Below are positions 3,632 to 56,325 of a stretch of DNA of 64,000 nt, in pieces. Both the position numbers and the translations under genes were made by a program. This stretch comes from a virus (taxonomy: Duplodnaviria > Caudoviricetes), in IMG/VR virus record IMGVR_UViG_2643221950_000002, positions 56,138 to 120,137 of that record. One strand, 5' to 3'. Numbering within the stretch: the first letter of the stretch is position 1; each line of letters begins with the position of its first letter. The notes under the pieces were generated by a model. It was not told where the DNA came from and made no database searches. It saw nothing but the letters and a program-made list of their open reading frames with translations.

Positions 3632-3925
3632 TTAAAGTGTTAGACTTAAATCTAATATTCTCTTTTTACGATCATTAAGCTTCTTTATTTCCTCATCTAT
3701 TCTTTTAAACTTCGATTTCATAACCCTTTCAAAATCTCTTTTCTTGTCGTCTCCATCTAGAAGAATTATTTCACGATCACCCTTAGATGTATTGAAATTG
3801 TAAAGACCTCCAACATGTTGATTTTTCATCCATTTTTCATAATCAGATCGATCAACCTCTTCTTTCTCAATTCTTCCATCTTTATAAAGACTTATTTTTA
3901 ACATCACTTCTCCTCTTTCCTGCAT
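3632..3925 (-). CDS. Hypothetical phage protein
   Basis: Likely start MLKISLY after GAGGAG. Confidence 0.65.
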   Translation of the reverse strand: MQERGEVMLKISLYKDGRIEKEEVDRSDYEKWMKNQHVGGLYNFNTSKGDREIILLDGDDKKRDFERVMKSKFKRIDEEIKKLNDRKKRILDLSLTL

Positions 3926-3937
3926 AAAATTAGAATT

Positions 3938-4171
3938 TTATTCGACTATTCCATATGCTTTGTATATTTCTTCTTTCATACTATGCCCTTGCCGCTCTTC
4001 TTCTTCACCAATCTCTTTAAATGTCATTGTGAACTCATCAATAAGTCTAAAATTGATTTCACCGACTCCTTCCTCGTCAATTACATCATACATTTCATTT
4101 ATTGAGTATTTTACCGTTCCTTTTAAACCATCAACATCTGCATCTAAAATTCTTTTAATTACTTGCTCCAT
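3938..4171 (-). CDS. Hypothetical acidic phage protein
   Basis: 77 aa, AAGGGG RBS, directly behind a promoter. Confidence 0.7.
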   Translation of the reverse strand: MEQVIKRILDADVDGLKGTVKYSINEMYDVIDEEGVGEINFRLIDEFTMTFKEIGEEEERQGHSMKEEIYKAYGIVE

Positions 4172-12208: not shown

Positions 12209-14740
12209 TTGGGGAGAAAAACAAATGATTTAAGCAAACAAGTGTTTATTTATAGTCTTGATACTTCGAGTTTTTATAATGATCGAGAAAATTTGTTACA
12301 TAGAAAGATTTTAAAGTCTTATAGATATAGAGATTTGCTTAAAACACATAATGGGGACACAAAAAAAAATAAGAAATACATAAAAAACAGAATCGCTAAA
12401 TTAAAACAGGAGTTAAATCAAGCCTTCAGTGAACATGAGAGTGTACGGATGCTTAGAGCCGACACATTAACAGACAATAAAAAGATCGCTATGTTTGATT
12501 CAGTTATGACTCGAACTCTAGGTATAAAAGAAAACAATTTCTCTGATGATGTAATTGTGGTTCAGGTATACCATTTCCAGGTGTTCAAGAGTATTCTTGA
12601 TGAAGGTTTTGTACATAATAATGAACTTTATGTTTACTTTACGAGTTCAGCTGGGCAAATACGAACGAAAAAAGCTTGTTTTATTAAGAAGTCTACATAC
12701 GATAAATTTGAAAATGCTTTAACATGTGGACTTAGTCTTGATGATATCAATTCTAATGGTGGGATGAACATCAATAAATGGAATGCTTACCTTGCTTTAT
12801 CGAATAGTGCCAGCAGCCATTGGAATATTGATATAAGTAAAACTGTTGTTGTTGATGATTTAGAAACCGATGTAATGAGTGAAGTTGATTATATCGACCG
12901 CAATACATATGAAATTACTAGAAAGAAAATGAATATTCCTATTGAGCATACTGATGGTTGTGGAATTATATCACCTAAGCTCAGTAGTAAAAGCTTTATG
13001 GTCAGACTGCCGTGGGTTAAAGGATTGTTAGTGCCCTTCGACTTTCATCGTTTTGCAGAAATACATAATAAAACACAAATTACAGATATATACGGTAAGG
13101 TATGGGATATTAAGAAAGATGATATCCAGATTATTTTCACTAAATCGCAATTTAAGATGTGGAAATATTATAAGTCCTGGAACGAATATCAAGAAAAGTT
13201 TGTTCTGTACGGTTGTCTGGGGGCTAAATTAAATGAAGAAGACCCTTCAGTTGAGGGGAAACTTACATATCAAATGCTTCAAACCCTTACTGATATTACT
13301 CATGATGAGCTCAAGTCTATTAGTAACAAAACTGTTGAGGAAATAAAGGCAATTGGTAATGATAAAGATATTATGTTAAAAATTATGGGGGCTACTGAGA
13401 ATCGAAAATTCAGATCGCCTTTGCAAAATGCATTACTCCTCTATCCTCAACTATTGAATGATGATCATGTCAAAGAAACCATTAAGAATAAGAAAAAGAG
13501 TCTTGTAAAAGACGCAAAATCAGGAAAGCTGCAGATTGAAAATTCTAAGTACACCTATCTTTGCCCCGATTTATATGCTTTTTGTGAAAAACTGTTTTTA
13601 GGAATTGAAAATCCGAATGGTTTATTGGATGGCAGCAATGTTTACTGTTCGCTTTATGATGAAGGAGAAATTGATGTACTTCGCTCCCCTCATCTTTATC
13701 GTGAGCATGGTATTAGAAAGAATGTTAGAAGCAAATTGCTAGATGAATGGTTTATCACCAAAGGAGTTTATACAAGTGTTCATGATCCAATCTCAAAATT
13801 GCTCCAGTTTGACAATGACGGGGATAAAGCGCTGATAATATCAGATCCTTTCTTTGTTAATATCGCAAAGAAACATGTCGCTGACATCGTTCCCCTTTAT
13901 TATGAGATGGGTGTTGCAAACAAACAGATGATTAACAGTGAAAATCTCTATGAATCTCTGACCAACGCCTATGCGGTTAATATTGGTGAATACAGTAACA
14001 ACATAACGAAGATTTGGAACAGTTCTTCAGTTAATATTGATGTTATCAAATGGCTATGCGCTGAAAATAACTTTGCTATCGACTATGCAAAAACGTTATT
14101 CATGCCTACAAGACCAGACAATGTTGACAAACAAATTAAAAATTACATAAAAGATAAAGTGCCTTTCTTCTTTGTCCATGCTAAAGATAAGGATATCTCT
14201 TCTGTACAGCCTATTAATGAGAGTACTGTAAATAAACTAGAAGAAATCATTCCAACTGATAGGATTAATTTCAAAGCTGTTGCTGGACACTTCGATTACA
14301 ACTTCTTATTAAAAAACAAACGTATTAAAGAAGATGAAGAATTGGTTAATGAATACATAAAGCTTGATCGAAATAAAAAATGGCTTACTAATAATGAAGA
14401 AACTAAGCCGAATCAGAAGTTATACGTGTATAAGCTCATTAGAGAAAAGCTACTTGAAATAAATAGTGATGAACAATATGTTGTGGATGTTCTTGTGAAA
14501 CATCTGTACAAAAAGAAAAGCAGATATAAAGCAACGTTGTGGGAATGCTTTGGTGAAACCATACTCAATAATCTGAAAAGGAATTTGAAAACTTTCAAAG
14601 GTTGCGTAAAGTGCGGACAAATGTATAAGCCTACCTCGAACAACTCTAGTTTTTGTACAAAGTGTTCAGTCACAATTGAAAAAGAAAAACATAAAAAAAG
14701 ACAGAAATCATATGTATCTAGGACAAAAATGACGGTTTAG
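12209..14740 (+). CDS. yonO: YonO single-subunit DNA-dependent RNA polymerase
   Basis: 843 aa; HTDGCG, RSPH and catalytic DNDGD motifs; C-terminal CxxC...CxxC. Confidence 0.93.
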
Positions 14741-14751
14741 GAAGTGCCTTG

Positions 14752-14834
14752 AGCCTTAGAGCCACAAGGGATACAGCGTTTTTGTGCAAAAATAAAGCTA
14801 TTAAAAAGCGGCTTCAGCCTTAGAGCCACAAGGG
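14752..14834 (+). repeat. 19-bp direct repeat AGCCTTAGAGCCACAAGGG (2 copies)
   Basis: Exact copies at 14752-14770 and 14816-14834. Confidence 0.9.
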
Positions 14835-14963
14835 TTCAGACCGCTTTTGGAGATAATCGTCATAAGGGAGGTAAAAAGCAAATATCCAAATTAAAAAGGT
14901 TAGTATATCTCCCCTCCCCATTTTTAAAAATACAAATTACACATATAATCAGGAGGAATAAGA

Positions 14964-15239
14964 ATGAATAAAACAGAATTAGTCTCAGCGGTGGTTGAAG
15001 CAACAGGATTAGCAAAGAAGGAAGTTTCGACAGTTGTTGAAGCAACATTAGATGCAATTGAATCTACTCTTAAAGAAGAAGGCCAAGTTAAAATTGCTGG
15101 GTTTGGCACATTTGAAGTAGCTACTCGTGCTGCGCGTAAGGGTCGCAACCCTCAAACAGGTGAAGAAATTGATATTCCTGAAACAAAAGCGCCAAAATTT
15201 AAAGCTGCAAAAGCACTTAAAGATGCTGTAAAAGGTTGA
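14964..15239 (+). CDS. yonN: HU-family DNA-binding protein
   Basis: MNKTELV...GFGTFEV..RAARKGRNPQTGEEI. Confidence 0.95.
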   Translation: MNKTELVSAVVEATGLAKKEVSTVVEATLDAIESTLKEEGQVKIAGFGTFEVATRAARKGRNPQTGEEIDIPETKAPKFKAAKALKDAVKG

Positions 15240-15289
15240 TTTTATCTAAATAAATAACGTATATAGACCATCTTGGTTTTTAAGTTGAA

Positions 15290-16300
15290 TGGCTTATGTC
15301 TTCCACGAAGAGGTAGGAGTCTTCGTGATCGACTAATGAATATTAATTAAATAATAGTCATTAGTGGGTTGACTGCCCTGTACAATTTTTCTCCAAACTG
15401 ACTCACTTCCTTTCATAAGTTAGTTCTGACTCACATTTAAGGAGAAGGCTACTCCTGAGTCGGATAATATTCATTTATATAGGTTTGAACACCCCCTTCT
15501 TCAACATATACCAAATGAATATTATCGGGCTATTAATGTCAATAAGTCTTCACGCTTAATTAAATGCGACTGTATCCTAACAGGGACTTGTTATAGGAGG
15601 CATTTTGCTCGACAATTAAAACTAATTGCGGTGTTGTGCTTCGGCCTGCACTTAAGGTGATTGGATGCGTCCAATCTTCTTTTAAAATTTATTTTCCCAA
15701 GCATGTACCTTCTCACACTGGGTAAGAAAAAACCATGCAGAATAAGAGACTGGTGATCTACACGCAATGCTATGTAGATAAGGTGTGTGACCTGACAAGT
15801 AAATTAGTGTTTGTCTCAGAGAAGGGGTTATATTGGTCTTACCCTTCCATTCATTTTTACACTAGCAAGACTTTCACTTGAGTAACAATTACACTTGGTA
15901 TTTCTACAGCACAAGAAATTGTGACTGTCTGACTTATGGATTAGCTAAATTTTAGTAAGAGTACTGTGTGTGCTCCTGTCCATGAGGTTTTAAGTAAAAA
16001 GGCCATCAAGTAGCGATGGTTTCTCCGCAGGCGGGGAGTTGAAATACTGCCAGAAAGTGTGTTTCACTAGCTACTATCTAATCGACTTACTTAAAGTCTG
16101 TCGACTTCAAAGGTTTAATCGCTGAACCCGTAATCAGTGTACCTCCCTATCTTATAAAGATGGGGTTATTCTAGTTAGTAAATTCCTTCGGGTGTTTCCC
16201 CAGCACCCTTCCGACATTTCTTCTTTATTCCCCTTTCTTCTCTCCTTTTTTCGGGTGTTCCAATGTGTCGGCATTGGGCATCCGAAGGAATTTATTCGGT
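15290..16300 (+). ncRNA. Candidate large structured RNA or late-operon leader
   Basis: ~1 kb with no credible ORF and more than 10 adjacent stem-loops. Confidence 0.5.
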
Positions 16301-16337
16301 TCAAAATAAAAATTACATACTATCTGGAGGTTTTATA

Positions 16338-16529
16338 ATGGCAAGCAAAAAGACTAATCAAGTTAACTTAAAAGGATTTTTCGATATGGACGTTATGGAA
16401 GTGACAGAACTTACAAAAGACGACGAACTTAGATACGATTTTAAAGAAATTTTATCTGAATTTAACGGAAAACAGGTCAGCATCACTATTAAGGAAGAAA
16501 ATGAATTGCCTGTAAAAGACAATGAATAA
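16338..16529 (+). CDS. yonK: YonK-family protein
   Basis: GGAGG RBS; 63 aa, MASKKTNQVNLKGFFDMDVMEVTE. Confidence 0.85.
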   Translation: MASKKTNQVNLKGFFDMDVMEVTELTKDDELRYDFKEILSEFNGKQVSITIKEENELPVKDNE

Positions 16530-16531
16530 AG

Positions 16532-17743
16532 GTGGGTGAGTTAATGAATGTAATTGTAAAACCAGAGTTGCAACGTGGAAAAGGCGAAAGCTTTGATGAC
16601 TATTTTATTAGATTACATACAAATAAACACGAGTATAAAATCGACAAGTTTGTTATTAGAGATTTGCTTAACGATGAATCTGGTGAGAACTATGGAGAAA
16701 GTAAATGGCGTAAAGACTATGCTCAATATCGTAAATGGGCTGATTACCATGTAAATAAGAATCTTGATCAAGAGATTGTAGATAAATATGATGAACTCAA
16801 AATTGAAGCTGCTAAAGCAGAAGTACGCAGACGTGATCAGAATAGAGAGTTAACCAAGAAGATTAGAAATTCCGCTCGTTTTGATCGTATCCGTGATGAT
16901 TTGACTGAAGCAATTTTGAATTTAGAGAAAAAACGTCCTCTTAAATTCTCCTCCCCTCCTCCTCCAACATCTGATAAGCATGGTCTAGCACTGTTCAGTG
17001 ACTGGCATTTCGGAATGGACATCAATAATCGAATTAACACTTTTAATGAACAAGTATTCAACGAGAGAGTCCAGAAACTAACTCAGGACGTTATTAAACA
17101 CGGTAAATCAAATGGGATTTCAACTCTGCATGTAGCTAATCTTGGAGATTTAATTGGTGGGCTAATACATGTTTCAACACGAGTTCAAGCTAATACTGAT
17201 TCTATAGAGCAAATTCAATACGTCACAGAAACATTAGCTGAGATTTTGGCAGCATTCGCTAGTGAATTTGAAGAAGTTAAATTCTATAGTGTTGCAGGAA
17301 ACCACGGTCGCCTCTCCCCTTCCAAAAACGATGTAGGCATTAAAGAAAACTTCGAGTATTTAATTAACTGGTATTTAAAAGCTCGTCTAAGCCACATTTC
17401 AAATATCACTATTGAGCAAGAGCAAGACGGTTTCATCCCTACAAAAATTAAAAATCAAGAAGTTGTGTTTGTGCATGGTCATTATGATCGGGTTGATCAG
17501 TGTGTAACACGCTTACCTCAATTACTTGGCTATATCCCTTCTTACATATTCGGTGGACATGTTCACCACAATTACGAAAAAGAATACGGTAGCACAACTG
17601 TAGTTGTTAATGGAGCTTTAGTAGGCGCTGACGACTACGCTATGCAAGGACGCTTTGGAACTAAGCCTTCGCAGAAATTCATGGTATTTGATGAAGAAGG
17701 TATTGAAGCTACATACATAATTCGTTTTAAAGACGGTAGATGA
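16532..17743 (+). CDS. yonJ: YonJ-like metallophosphoesterase
   Basis: SDWH, LGD, GNHG, HGH and GHVH calcineurin-like motifs. Confidence 0.85.
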   Translation: MGELMNVIVKPELQRGKGESFDDYFIRLHTNKHEYKIDKFVIRDLLNDESGENYGESKWRKDYAQYRKWADYHVNKNLDQEIVDKYDELKIEAAKAEVRRRDQNRELTKKIRNSARFDRIRDDLTEAILNLEKKRPLKFSSPPPPTSDKHGLALFSDWHFGMDINNRINTFNEQVFNERVQKLTQDVIKHGKSNGISTLHVANLGDLIGGLIHVSTRVQANTDSIEQIQYVTETLAEILAAFASEFEEVKFYSVAGNHGRLSPSKNDVGIKENFEYLINWYLKARLSHISNITIEQEQDGFIPTKIKNQEVVFVHGHYDRVDQCVTRLPQLLGYIPSYIFGGHVHHNYEKEYGSTTVVVNGALVGADDYAMQGRFGTKPSQKFMVFDEEGIEATYIIRFKDGR

Positions 17744-55926: not shown

Positions 55927-56325
55927 ATGGTATTTATGGCTGATGGAAATTACGATGTTTTAAAACTTGAGATTGACCACATCAAAAACAATATTAGAGA
56001 ACTTGAAGCTGATAGAAAAATAATGATGAAAACTAATCAGACATTAAGTGAAAATGTTGTCAGAATTACAACTTTGCTAGAAAATCAGGCCACAAACATC
56101 AATGAACAAAATAGAAAAATTGATACAAATCAACAACACTTGAATAATGAAATAGCTGGTTTAAGAAATGAACTGCAAAGAAGTGCTGATCTTCAAACTA
56201 AATGGTATCAAGACTTTCTCTCAAGCGCCTCAGGCCAAGTATTTAAAATATTATTAATCGTTGTGCTTGGTTTACTTGGAGCCAATCTTGCAGGTGTAGA
56301 CATTATGAAATTATTCGGAAAGTAG
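55927..56325 (+). CDS. Holin-associated protein (coiled coil plus C-terminal TM)
   Basis: Between the lysin and holin genes. Confidence 0.65.
   Translation: MVFMADGNYDVLKLEIDHIKNNIRELEADRKIMMKTNQTLSENVVRITTLLENQATNINEQNRKIDTNQQHLNNEIAGLRNELQRSADLQTKWYQDFLSSASGQVFKILLIVVLGLLGANLAGVDIMKLFGK

Follow-up and report, generated by a model that had tools for sequence, protein, structure and literature searches.

SPbeta is a model temperate phage, and its YonO protein is, to our knowledge, the only characterised single-chain relative of cellular RNA polymerases. The late genes of SPbeta form a single operon that YonO transcribes and that starts upstream of an "unannotated non-coding RNA" lying downstream of the YonO start site; the main text of that study leaves the YonO promoter undefined, and the working of this one known promoter and its leader of 1-2 kb is left open there (Forrest et al. 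2017, PMC5467207). Here we analyse the corresponding region in a 64,000-nucleotide (nt) stretch of DNA, hereafter the window (positions 56,138 to 120,137 of the IMG/VR virus record IMGVR_UViG_2643221950_000002), which is part of an SPbeta-like provirus. The subject is a gene-free gap of 1098 nt (15240-16337) that reaches from the end of a yonN-like HU gene to the start of yonK, with all genes named here on the + strand.

We collected 60 related loci (numbered with L; L001 is the SPbeta locus), anchored on yonJ, and comparison of the gap by blastn gave four collinear conserved blocks with variable DNA between them: A (15513-15671, core 15619-15671), B (15693-15799), C (16082-16151) and D (16184-16315). 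All four are collinear with the SPbeta gap, with which the window gap shares only islands (none of 26 matching phage records covers at least 80% of the gap), and they are present or absent independently of one another among relatives. The comparison indicates that the gap is a mosaic of separable RNA-structure modules and variable spacers, not one large RNA. We consider it about an even chance (probability roughly 0.5) that this gene-free head of the late operon consists of independently conserved + strand RNA modules, of which A and B are directed at the host and D acts in cis.

A sequence-only reading of this DNA had described a hairpin-dense non-coding region of ~1 kb, presumed to contain structured non-coding RNA (ncRNA), at the start of the YonO-transcribed late operon. 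The hairpin density was borne out over the 1098-nt gap (no conserved open reading frame, ORF, and five of eight windows folding beyond shuffles), as was the presence of structured RNA, with compensatory changes in A, B and weakly in D, and the position is consistent with Forrest et al. 2017 (PMC5467207). The suggestion of one large structured ncRNA did not hold in view of the separable blocks, the variable spacers and their independent presence or absence in relatives; a cluster of small RNAs or leader modules came closest among the options offered. The option of an antitermination RNA is weakened by the occurrence of A and B in phages for which no YonO was found, together with the failure to find them in distant YonO phages. 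SPbeta has the same gene order with a yonN-yonK gap of 1681 nt, and SPbetaL7 one of 1544 nt, both without an annotated feature. A long gap at yonN-yonK is the rule in this phage family and not an oddity of one genome.

Modules A and B

The elements of modules A and B in the window are as follows.

15631-15681, + strand: module A, two UNCG-capped hairpins
15631..15651, + strand: module A hairpin 1, irregular 8-base-pair (bp) stem with UUCG tetraloop
15654..15681, + strand: module A hairpin 2, 12-bp stem whose apex GAUGCGUC (UGCG loop) is invariant, then UUUUAAAA
15701..15847, + strand: module B, multi-helix domain of ~150 nt
15701-05/15734-38: module B helix P1
15707-10/15720-23: module B helix P1a
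15757-62/15773-78: module B helix P3
15821-26/15842-47: module B helix P4
15713-18/15785-90: module B candidate pseudoknot, P1a loop with the stretch after P3
15790-99: module B invariant tail ACCUGACAAG

For module B, an alignment of 39 distinct sequences (A2) showed compensatory change in four of five pairs of P1 and five of six pairs of P3, with four different stem sequences across lineages. Paired cells reached 99.0% vs 93.0% in shuffled alignments, while slid controls were 14-56% paired; ten pairs changed on both sides, and none of 500 shuffles reached the observed paired percentage, cell count or covariation score. Long single-stranded stretches of B are invariant. A covariance model of this module (R1) recognised one copy in the window at 109.6 bits (15683-15803). 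The pseudoknot shows compensatory change in one of six pairs (C-G in the window type, U-A elsewhere) and competes with an alternative helix, so that both are unproven candidates. In SPbeta and L086, too, B is followed, as judged by eye, by the P4 hairpin with its loop UUAUA..GGUCUU.

Module A was aligned over 45 distinct sequences (A3). Hairpin 2 has compensatory change in 8 of its 12 pairs and hairpin 1 in one of eight, with a further four changing on one side (U-G, U-A and C-G all occur at one pair). The share of paired cells was 87% vs 80.5% after shuffling, and again 0/500 shuffles attained the paired percentage, the cell count or the covariation score. The covariance model R2 found the module in the window at 82.9 bits (15618-15701). 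Two SPbeta-like relatives, L025 (2888-2971) and L096 (1576-1659), have lost ~16 nt that make up the 5' half of hairpin 1, with hairpin 2 intact.

G-U cells are frequent in both modules, with U-G in 34 of 39 sequences at one B pair and G-U in 12 and 8 of 45 at pairs of A. On the other strand these cells would be A-C, which is why we assign both RNAs to the + strand. Taken together, the alignments show that modules A and B are genuine structured + strand RNAs, and D less firmly so. The sequence-only reading had proposed covariation among relatives as a check, and against shuffled or slid controls it came out clearly for A and B, weakly for D (three pairs) and was not shown for C. The Rfam search it had also proposed returned no family over modules A-D, riboswitches and ribozymes included: within 14500-16800, Rfam 15 gave only four chance matches up to an E value of 10, with 13.7-18.3 bits vs gathering thresholds of 39-55. 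Likewise, no Rfam family lay over A or B in five related loci (L001, L010, L065, L101, L102). Literature searches, with the supplements of Forrest 2017 and Weinberg 2017 outside their scope, found no description of the module A or B motifs.

Folding energies give a second view of the gap. Eight 150-nt windows of it were compared with 200 dinucleotide shuffles each, and the z scores were -3.31, -3.51, -2.71, -0.56, -0.83, -1.11, -4.25 and -3.03, so that five of eight beat their shuffles (-2.7 to -4.3). Twelve coding controls of the same length from yonO, yonJ and one downstream gene ranged from +1.36 to -1.11 with a mean of ~0, none in excess. The excess of stable hairpins is genuine at three places of the gap, namely its 5' third, the surroundings of module A and its 3' fifth, and is not found in the middle.

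Could unannotated small proteins account for the conservation instead? Fourteen ORFs of 25-58 amino acids (aa) can be drawn in the gap, and in the relative L087 a small ORF preceded by a good ribosome-binding site (RBS) has been inserted. However, none of the 14 is preserved in start, frame and openness throughout the four closest relatives, so that conserved small ORFs, which the sequence-only reading had named as the alternative to its RNA, do not explain the region. Further, the conserved blocks change in paired columns, not in third positions, and the distance between A and B varies from 20 to 227 nt among phages. We regard this explanation as scarcely credible.

Distribution among Bacillus phages and possible site of action

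Among 50,697 phage records, 54 matched the stretch that carries A and B in phage 015DV004. Fourteen Bastillevirinae (Herelleviridae) myophages, namely 015DV/000TH phages, SIOphi, Mawwa, TimeGriffin, fHSPT3, KKP_404x phages and Yucatan, cover 80% or more of this stretch, and SPbeta-like phages matched partially. Fifteen further myophages have A only, e.g. Goe3, Goe7, BSP12/14/38 and BM-P1. In these myophages the element is flanked by a repressor-like gene and the portal gene, within DNA that is mostly non-coding, and in Goe3, BSP14, BSP38 and BM-P1 the element sits inside a tRNA island. A third kind of phage contig (L086, L090 and their kin) has B without A, beside the small-terminase gene or before HNH endonuclease genes. 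Covariance models built from our own alignments found A without B in the L005-L009 group and in the Goe3 type, and pattern scans of IMG/VR located A in 57 stretches and B in 46. A YonO homologue was found in 0/3 Bastillevirinae genomes carrying the element, and the covariance models found neither A nor B in the distant YonO phages L038, L045, L053 and L058; in L038 a 414-aa ORF occupies the gap.

A and B are thus two RNA motifs absent from Rfam 15 and common to unrelated Bacillus phages. The comparison shows portable and separable elements, present as near-identical copies in three kinds of Bacillus phage and each time in non-coding DNA where the packaging and head genes begin, that are shared horizontally and are neither specific to YonO phages nor required by them.

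Several observations on individual carriers can be added. L143 (3349-3375) and L009 are the same 164.5-kb IMG/VR contig, which has A without B in its yonN-yonK gap and a B-type core elsewhere; in L143 this core lies beside a 189-aa ORF equal in length to the ORF after B in L086. In the myophage 015DV004 (L065, ~3830-3990), and similarly in L102, the 160 nt ahead of A are rich in G and contain repeats of words like GGGTTAGGG. ORFs annotated there as 'hypothetical protein' (e.g. gene 202) lie over the conserved RNA hairpins and are unlikely to be real genes. L057 is a contig with an SPbeta-like prophage filed in a 9.1-Mb genome labelled Streptomyces, probably a Bacillus contamination; 150 other genomes of the labelled genus gave no match.

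The distribution bears directly on the idea that the repeats (15304-15531 and module A) act as DNA, as a YonO promoter or control site of extruded hairpins or bent DNA, possibly aided by HU and comparable to phage N4. The YonO promoter is left undefined in the main text of Forrest et al. 2017 (PMC5467207); yonO, the HU gene and the hairpin repeats adjoin each other in the SPbeta-like loci examined; and the 5' AT-rich hairpins repeat a AATGAATATT-like word. In addition, the published YonO start (position 2225998 of Bacillus subtilis 168) would fall within ~20 nt of hairpin 1 of module A if unverified gene coordinates of that strain are used. On the other hand, the G-U pairs in hairpins 1 and 2 of A suit an RNA of one strand, not a cruciform, and L025 and L096 are without the 5' half of hairpin 1. 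A and B are better taken as portable RNA elements than as a YonO promoter because they were found in Bastillevirinae in which YonO was looked for and not found, and not in the distant YonO phages. We rejected the identity of module A as the YonO promoter on the same grounds, and consider a DNA-level role unlikely overall.

The main rival to a host-directed role is a cis-acting leader of the late operon, which would serve processive antitermination or anti-pausing, protect the 5' end from RNases, or form a ligand or protein switch before yonK. A and B are always on the same strand as, and upstream of, packaging and head genes in the three phage types, and in SPbeta a single late operon begins ahead of the ncRNA (Forrest et al. 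2017, PMC5467207). B has many invariant unpaired nucleotides and a candidate pseudoknot, typical of aptamer-like folds, and D abuts the RBS and carries a conserved UCUCC. However, A and B occur in phages with different polymerases (YonO in none of the three Bastillevirinae) and different downstream genes, and the distant YonO phages are without both modules. The next gene follows B after ~490 nt in the window and ~750 nt in SPbeta, and A and B are ~20 nt apart in the window, ~47 nt in myophages and ~227 nt in SPbeta. Moreover, 015DV004 has a promoter-like site (10/12 match) and a terminator-like hairpin of 13 bp between the RNA and the portal gene. The fold of B is conserved and aptamer-like; as regards a riboswitch, a conserved terminator or sequestering helix was not found after it: no expression platform follows, and P4 is without a U run in SPbeta and L086. 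A cis-acting leader therefore seems to us possible, with the odds clearly against it.

The earlier suggestions also included a packaging RNA, and a role in packaging could be that of a pac site or of an RNA like the packaging RNA of phi29. The region heads the packaging and head module in three phage types, which would suit it. However, the SPbeta genome is opened, and its packaging starts, between yonR and yonP, upstream of yonO, according to Kohm et al. (bioRxiv 2021.11.22.469490) and the review by Kohm and Hertel (PMC8270828), and the Rfam scan up to an E value of 10 brought up no packaging-RNA family in the gap, nor any family above threshold. This suggestion was dropped as very improbable.

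We favour a host-directed role of A and B. They would be self-contained RNA elements carried on the late primary transcript; as folded domains they would probably target something in the host, e.g. an RNase, an RNA-binding protein or a defence protein, and neither the phage's own polymerase nor yonK. The host is proposed as partner because it is the only thing common to all carriers of A and B. In the window, A would have the anatomy of an RNA of ~55-60 nt, with a 5' hairpin followed by a terminator-like hairpin and a U run; hairpin 2 is terminator-like with a U run in the window and in Goe3, and in 015DV004 a sigma-70-like TTGACG-17-TATCTT ends 1-2 nt before module A. A polymerase insensitive to hairpins could read through A. 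A more specific version is tentative and, in our estimate, doubtful: A and B might be new classes of mobile phage ncRNA, exchanged between unrelated Bacillus phages, expressed like the neighbouring tRNA islands where the late genes begin, and acting in trans on a host factor, e.g. as a decoy or inhibitor of a nuclease or defence protein, with B, whose fold is compact and conserved like an aptamer and includes the candidate pseudoknot, as the functional core.

Several points weigh against a mosaic of host-directed A and B with a cis-acting D. The covariation derives from ~4-5 lineages, many of the 39-45 distinct rows are close kin so that events are overcounted, and the aligned sequences were gathered by patterns or blast matches that require conserved motifs. 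In A, the nine pairs that change on both sides are a count equalled by 144/500 shuffles, and B folds no more stably than its shuffles (z -0.56 and +0.29). In 015DV004, the promoter-like site ahead of A matches at 9/12 positions, and Goe3 has none. After hairpin 2, the U run is only UUU followed by A's in the SPbeta type and is missing in the L005 type, for which reason a short terminated RNA cannot hold for all copies of A. Sequestration of the RBS by D is predicted in just two of three single-sequence folds, with a non-significant z. The constant same-strand placement before packaging genes suits a cis role as well as a trans role. Four of 24 runs were covered for an SPbeta-identical IMG/VR locus: two RNA runs gave 0 reads, ribosome profiling gave ten reads with none in the leader, and the fourth run gave a single 7.6-kb contig over the whole stretch, uninformative on starts, ends or expression.

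With the gap resolved into defined parts with coordinates and helices, those that cannot be specific to YonO are singled out. The sharing of A and B across phage families that have little else in common points to a late, host-directed RNA function, and RNA cargo other than tRNAs is a poorly charted class of phage biology.

Modules C and D, the remaining gap and its neighbours

The 3' part of the gap holds two further modules and a hairpin between them.

16083..16139, + strand: module C, hairpins 16083-86/16100-03 and 16120-25/16134-39 (loop AACCCGUAA conserved in the second)
16145..16165, + strand: hairpin CCCUAUCUU/AAGAUGGGG followed by UUAUUCU, terminator-like, at the position of the SPbeta DUF3800-VIII RNA
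16177..16296, + strand: module D, multi-helix domain of ~120 nt next to the yonK RBS
16177-89/16284-96: module D closing helix D1, 13 bp
16190-96/16202-08: module D hairpin D2
16260-65/16272-77: module D hairpin D3
16210-14/16251-55: module D helix D4, enclosing a 36-nt CU-rich loop (16215-50) that contains the conserved UCUCC

Module D is the most widely kept block and matches most related loci by blastn. Its long-range helix D1 closes the largest structure of the gap, which the sequence-only reading had missed. Over 39 distinct sequences of three sequence types (alignment A4), D1, D2 and D3 have one compensatory pair each, with paired cells at 93%, 99.6% and 91%, respectively; D4 does not vary in sequence, is off by one column in the alignment and is hence unscored. 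The fold z scores of the module are -4.25 and -3.03. In minimum free energy (MFE) folds, the UCUCC at 16241-45 pairs with GGAGG in the window and the CU-rich stretch pairs with the RBS in L005, and no such pairing appears in SPbeta. Fixed beside the yonK RBS in relatives of the B. subtilis group, D probably acts in cis within the 5' untranslated region of yonK, on yonK translation or on mRNA stability. That its CU-rich loop controls yonK translation is a weak inference from these predicted folds.

Module C is 85-87% identical to SPbeta-type loci over 16082-16151, and each of its pairs can form in 15-21 of 21 sequences, but compensatory changes are almost absent, so that its structure is no more than plausible. 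In L098 (minus strand; window ~16000-16140), block C is replaced by a long insert and a sequence with tRNA-like ends. The latter begins with GGTGGCGGAATAGGTAGAC... and ends in a T-arm-like GGTGCAAATCCTCGTCCGCACC, and neither ARAGORN nor Rfam called it. No tRNA was found by ARAGORN within the window; two SPbeta-like proviruses, L007 (3633-3704) and L035 (2092-2163), carry a tRNA-Trp in the yonN-yonK gap, ~285 nt downstream of module A.

The other parts of the gap and the flanking genes are the following.

15304..15531, + strand: 5' part of the gap, with one hairpin at 15304-11/15320-27 and, after it, long AT-rich hairpins at 15332-48/15349-65, 15425-33/15456-64 and 15458-76/15513-31
15848..16082, + strand: variable spacer, deleted, replaced or expanded among the four closest relatives (five-way alignment)
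12209..14740, + strand: yonO-like gene for a single-chain RNA polymerase, 843-aa ORF (Pfam RdRP PF05183, E 6.5e-10)
14964..15239, + strand: yonN-like HU gene, left border of the gap (Pfam Bac_DNA_binding, E 7.1e-35)
16327..16529, + strand: right border, yonK RBS (GGAGG 16327-31) and yonK gene 16338-16529 (Pfam YonK, E 5.3e-28)
16544-17743, + strand: yonJ-like metallophosphatase gene

Inverted repeats fill the 5' part, whose AT-rich hairpins have a word like AATGAATATT in common; its fold z scores are -3.31 and -3.51, and it is kept in the four close relatives. Judged by eye, two long hairpins of this part also occur in SPbeta (L001 ~1925-1975 and ~2080-2160), with one compensatory and one G-U change. 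The variable spacer is missing in L004, has no blastn match to SPbeta-type loci and folds with z scores of -0.83 and -1.11. The small ORF inserted in L087, with a strong RBS (AAGGAGG), is in this spacer, aligned between window positions 15932 and 15968.

All eight stems named in the sequence-only reading are present. Five were recovered in the inverted-repeat list (15304-11/15320-27, 15332-48/15349-65, 15458-76/15513-31, 15654-65/15670-81 and 15756-62/15773-79) and two in the terminator-like list (16003-16019 and 16145-16165), and GAAGGG/CCCTTC was located from the sequence and an MFE fold (15821-26/15842-47).

Gene order and flanking homology both identify the locus as an SPbeta-like late-operon head, yonO-yonN-gap-yonK-yonJ, with tblastn identities to SPbeta of 72% for YonO, 67% for HU and 79% for YonK. 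Between yonO and the HU gene, a 19-nt word, AGCCTTAGAGCCACAAGGG, occurs twice (14752-14770 and 14816-14834), and its second copy occupies the loop of a long hairpin, AAAAGCGG...CCGCTTTT, resembling a two-way terminator.

Comparison with known systems

HK022 put and the B. subtilis EAR element are leader RNAs that act on the multi-subunit polymerase of the host. Modules A and B resemble them as structured hairpin RNAs near the 5' end of a long operon, but occur in phages with and without YonO and have no sequence or model match to them. The virion RNA polymerase of phage N4 uses hairpin promoters, which likewise combine an unusual phage polymerase with hairpin-forming DNA near the start site; in contrast, module A is not specific to YonO phages, and YonO is not known to read hairpins.

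The SPbeta ncRNA of Forrest et al. 2017 (PMC5467207) shares with the window modules its yonN-yonK position at the head of the YonO-dependent late operon, whereas the account in the main text describes no sequence, ends, structure or function for it.

DUF3800-VIII (RF03075) is an orphan structured RNA like A and B that lies in the SPbeta and L010 gaps just after block C (47.5 bits at L001 3060-3125 and 56.4 bits at L010 4552-4618; gathering threshold 40.2). It bears no resemblance to module A or B, and no match to it was found in the window (14500-16800) up to an E value of 10. A DUF3800 protein gene was found in none of four records (SPbeta, the record of L010, 015DV004 and this phage).

Weinberg et al. 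2017 (PMC5737381) class the DUF3800 and skipping-rope motifs as orphan RNAs to which no function is assigned. Skipping-rope, ROOL and GOLLD differ from A and B in that none of them matched the window, and A with ~50 nt and B with ~150 nt are far smaller than ROOL or GOLLD. Like A and B, they are conserved orphan RNAs of phages and prophages, often located beside tRNAs and some with terminators of their own (Weinberg et al. 2017, PMC5737381), and in Goe3 the tRNA island that carries module A also has a skipping-rope RNA (50.9 bits).

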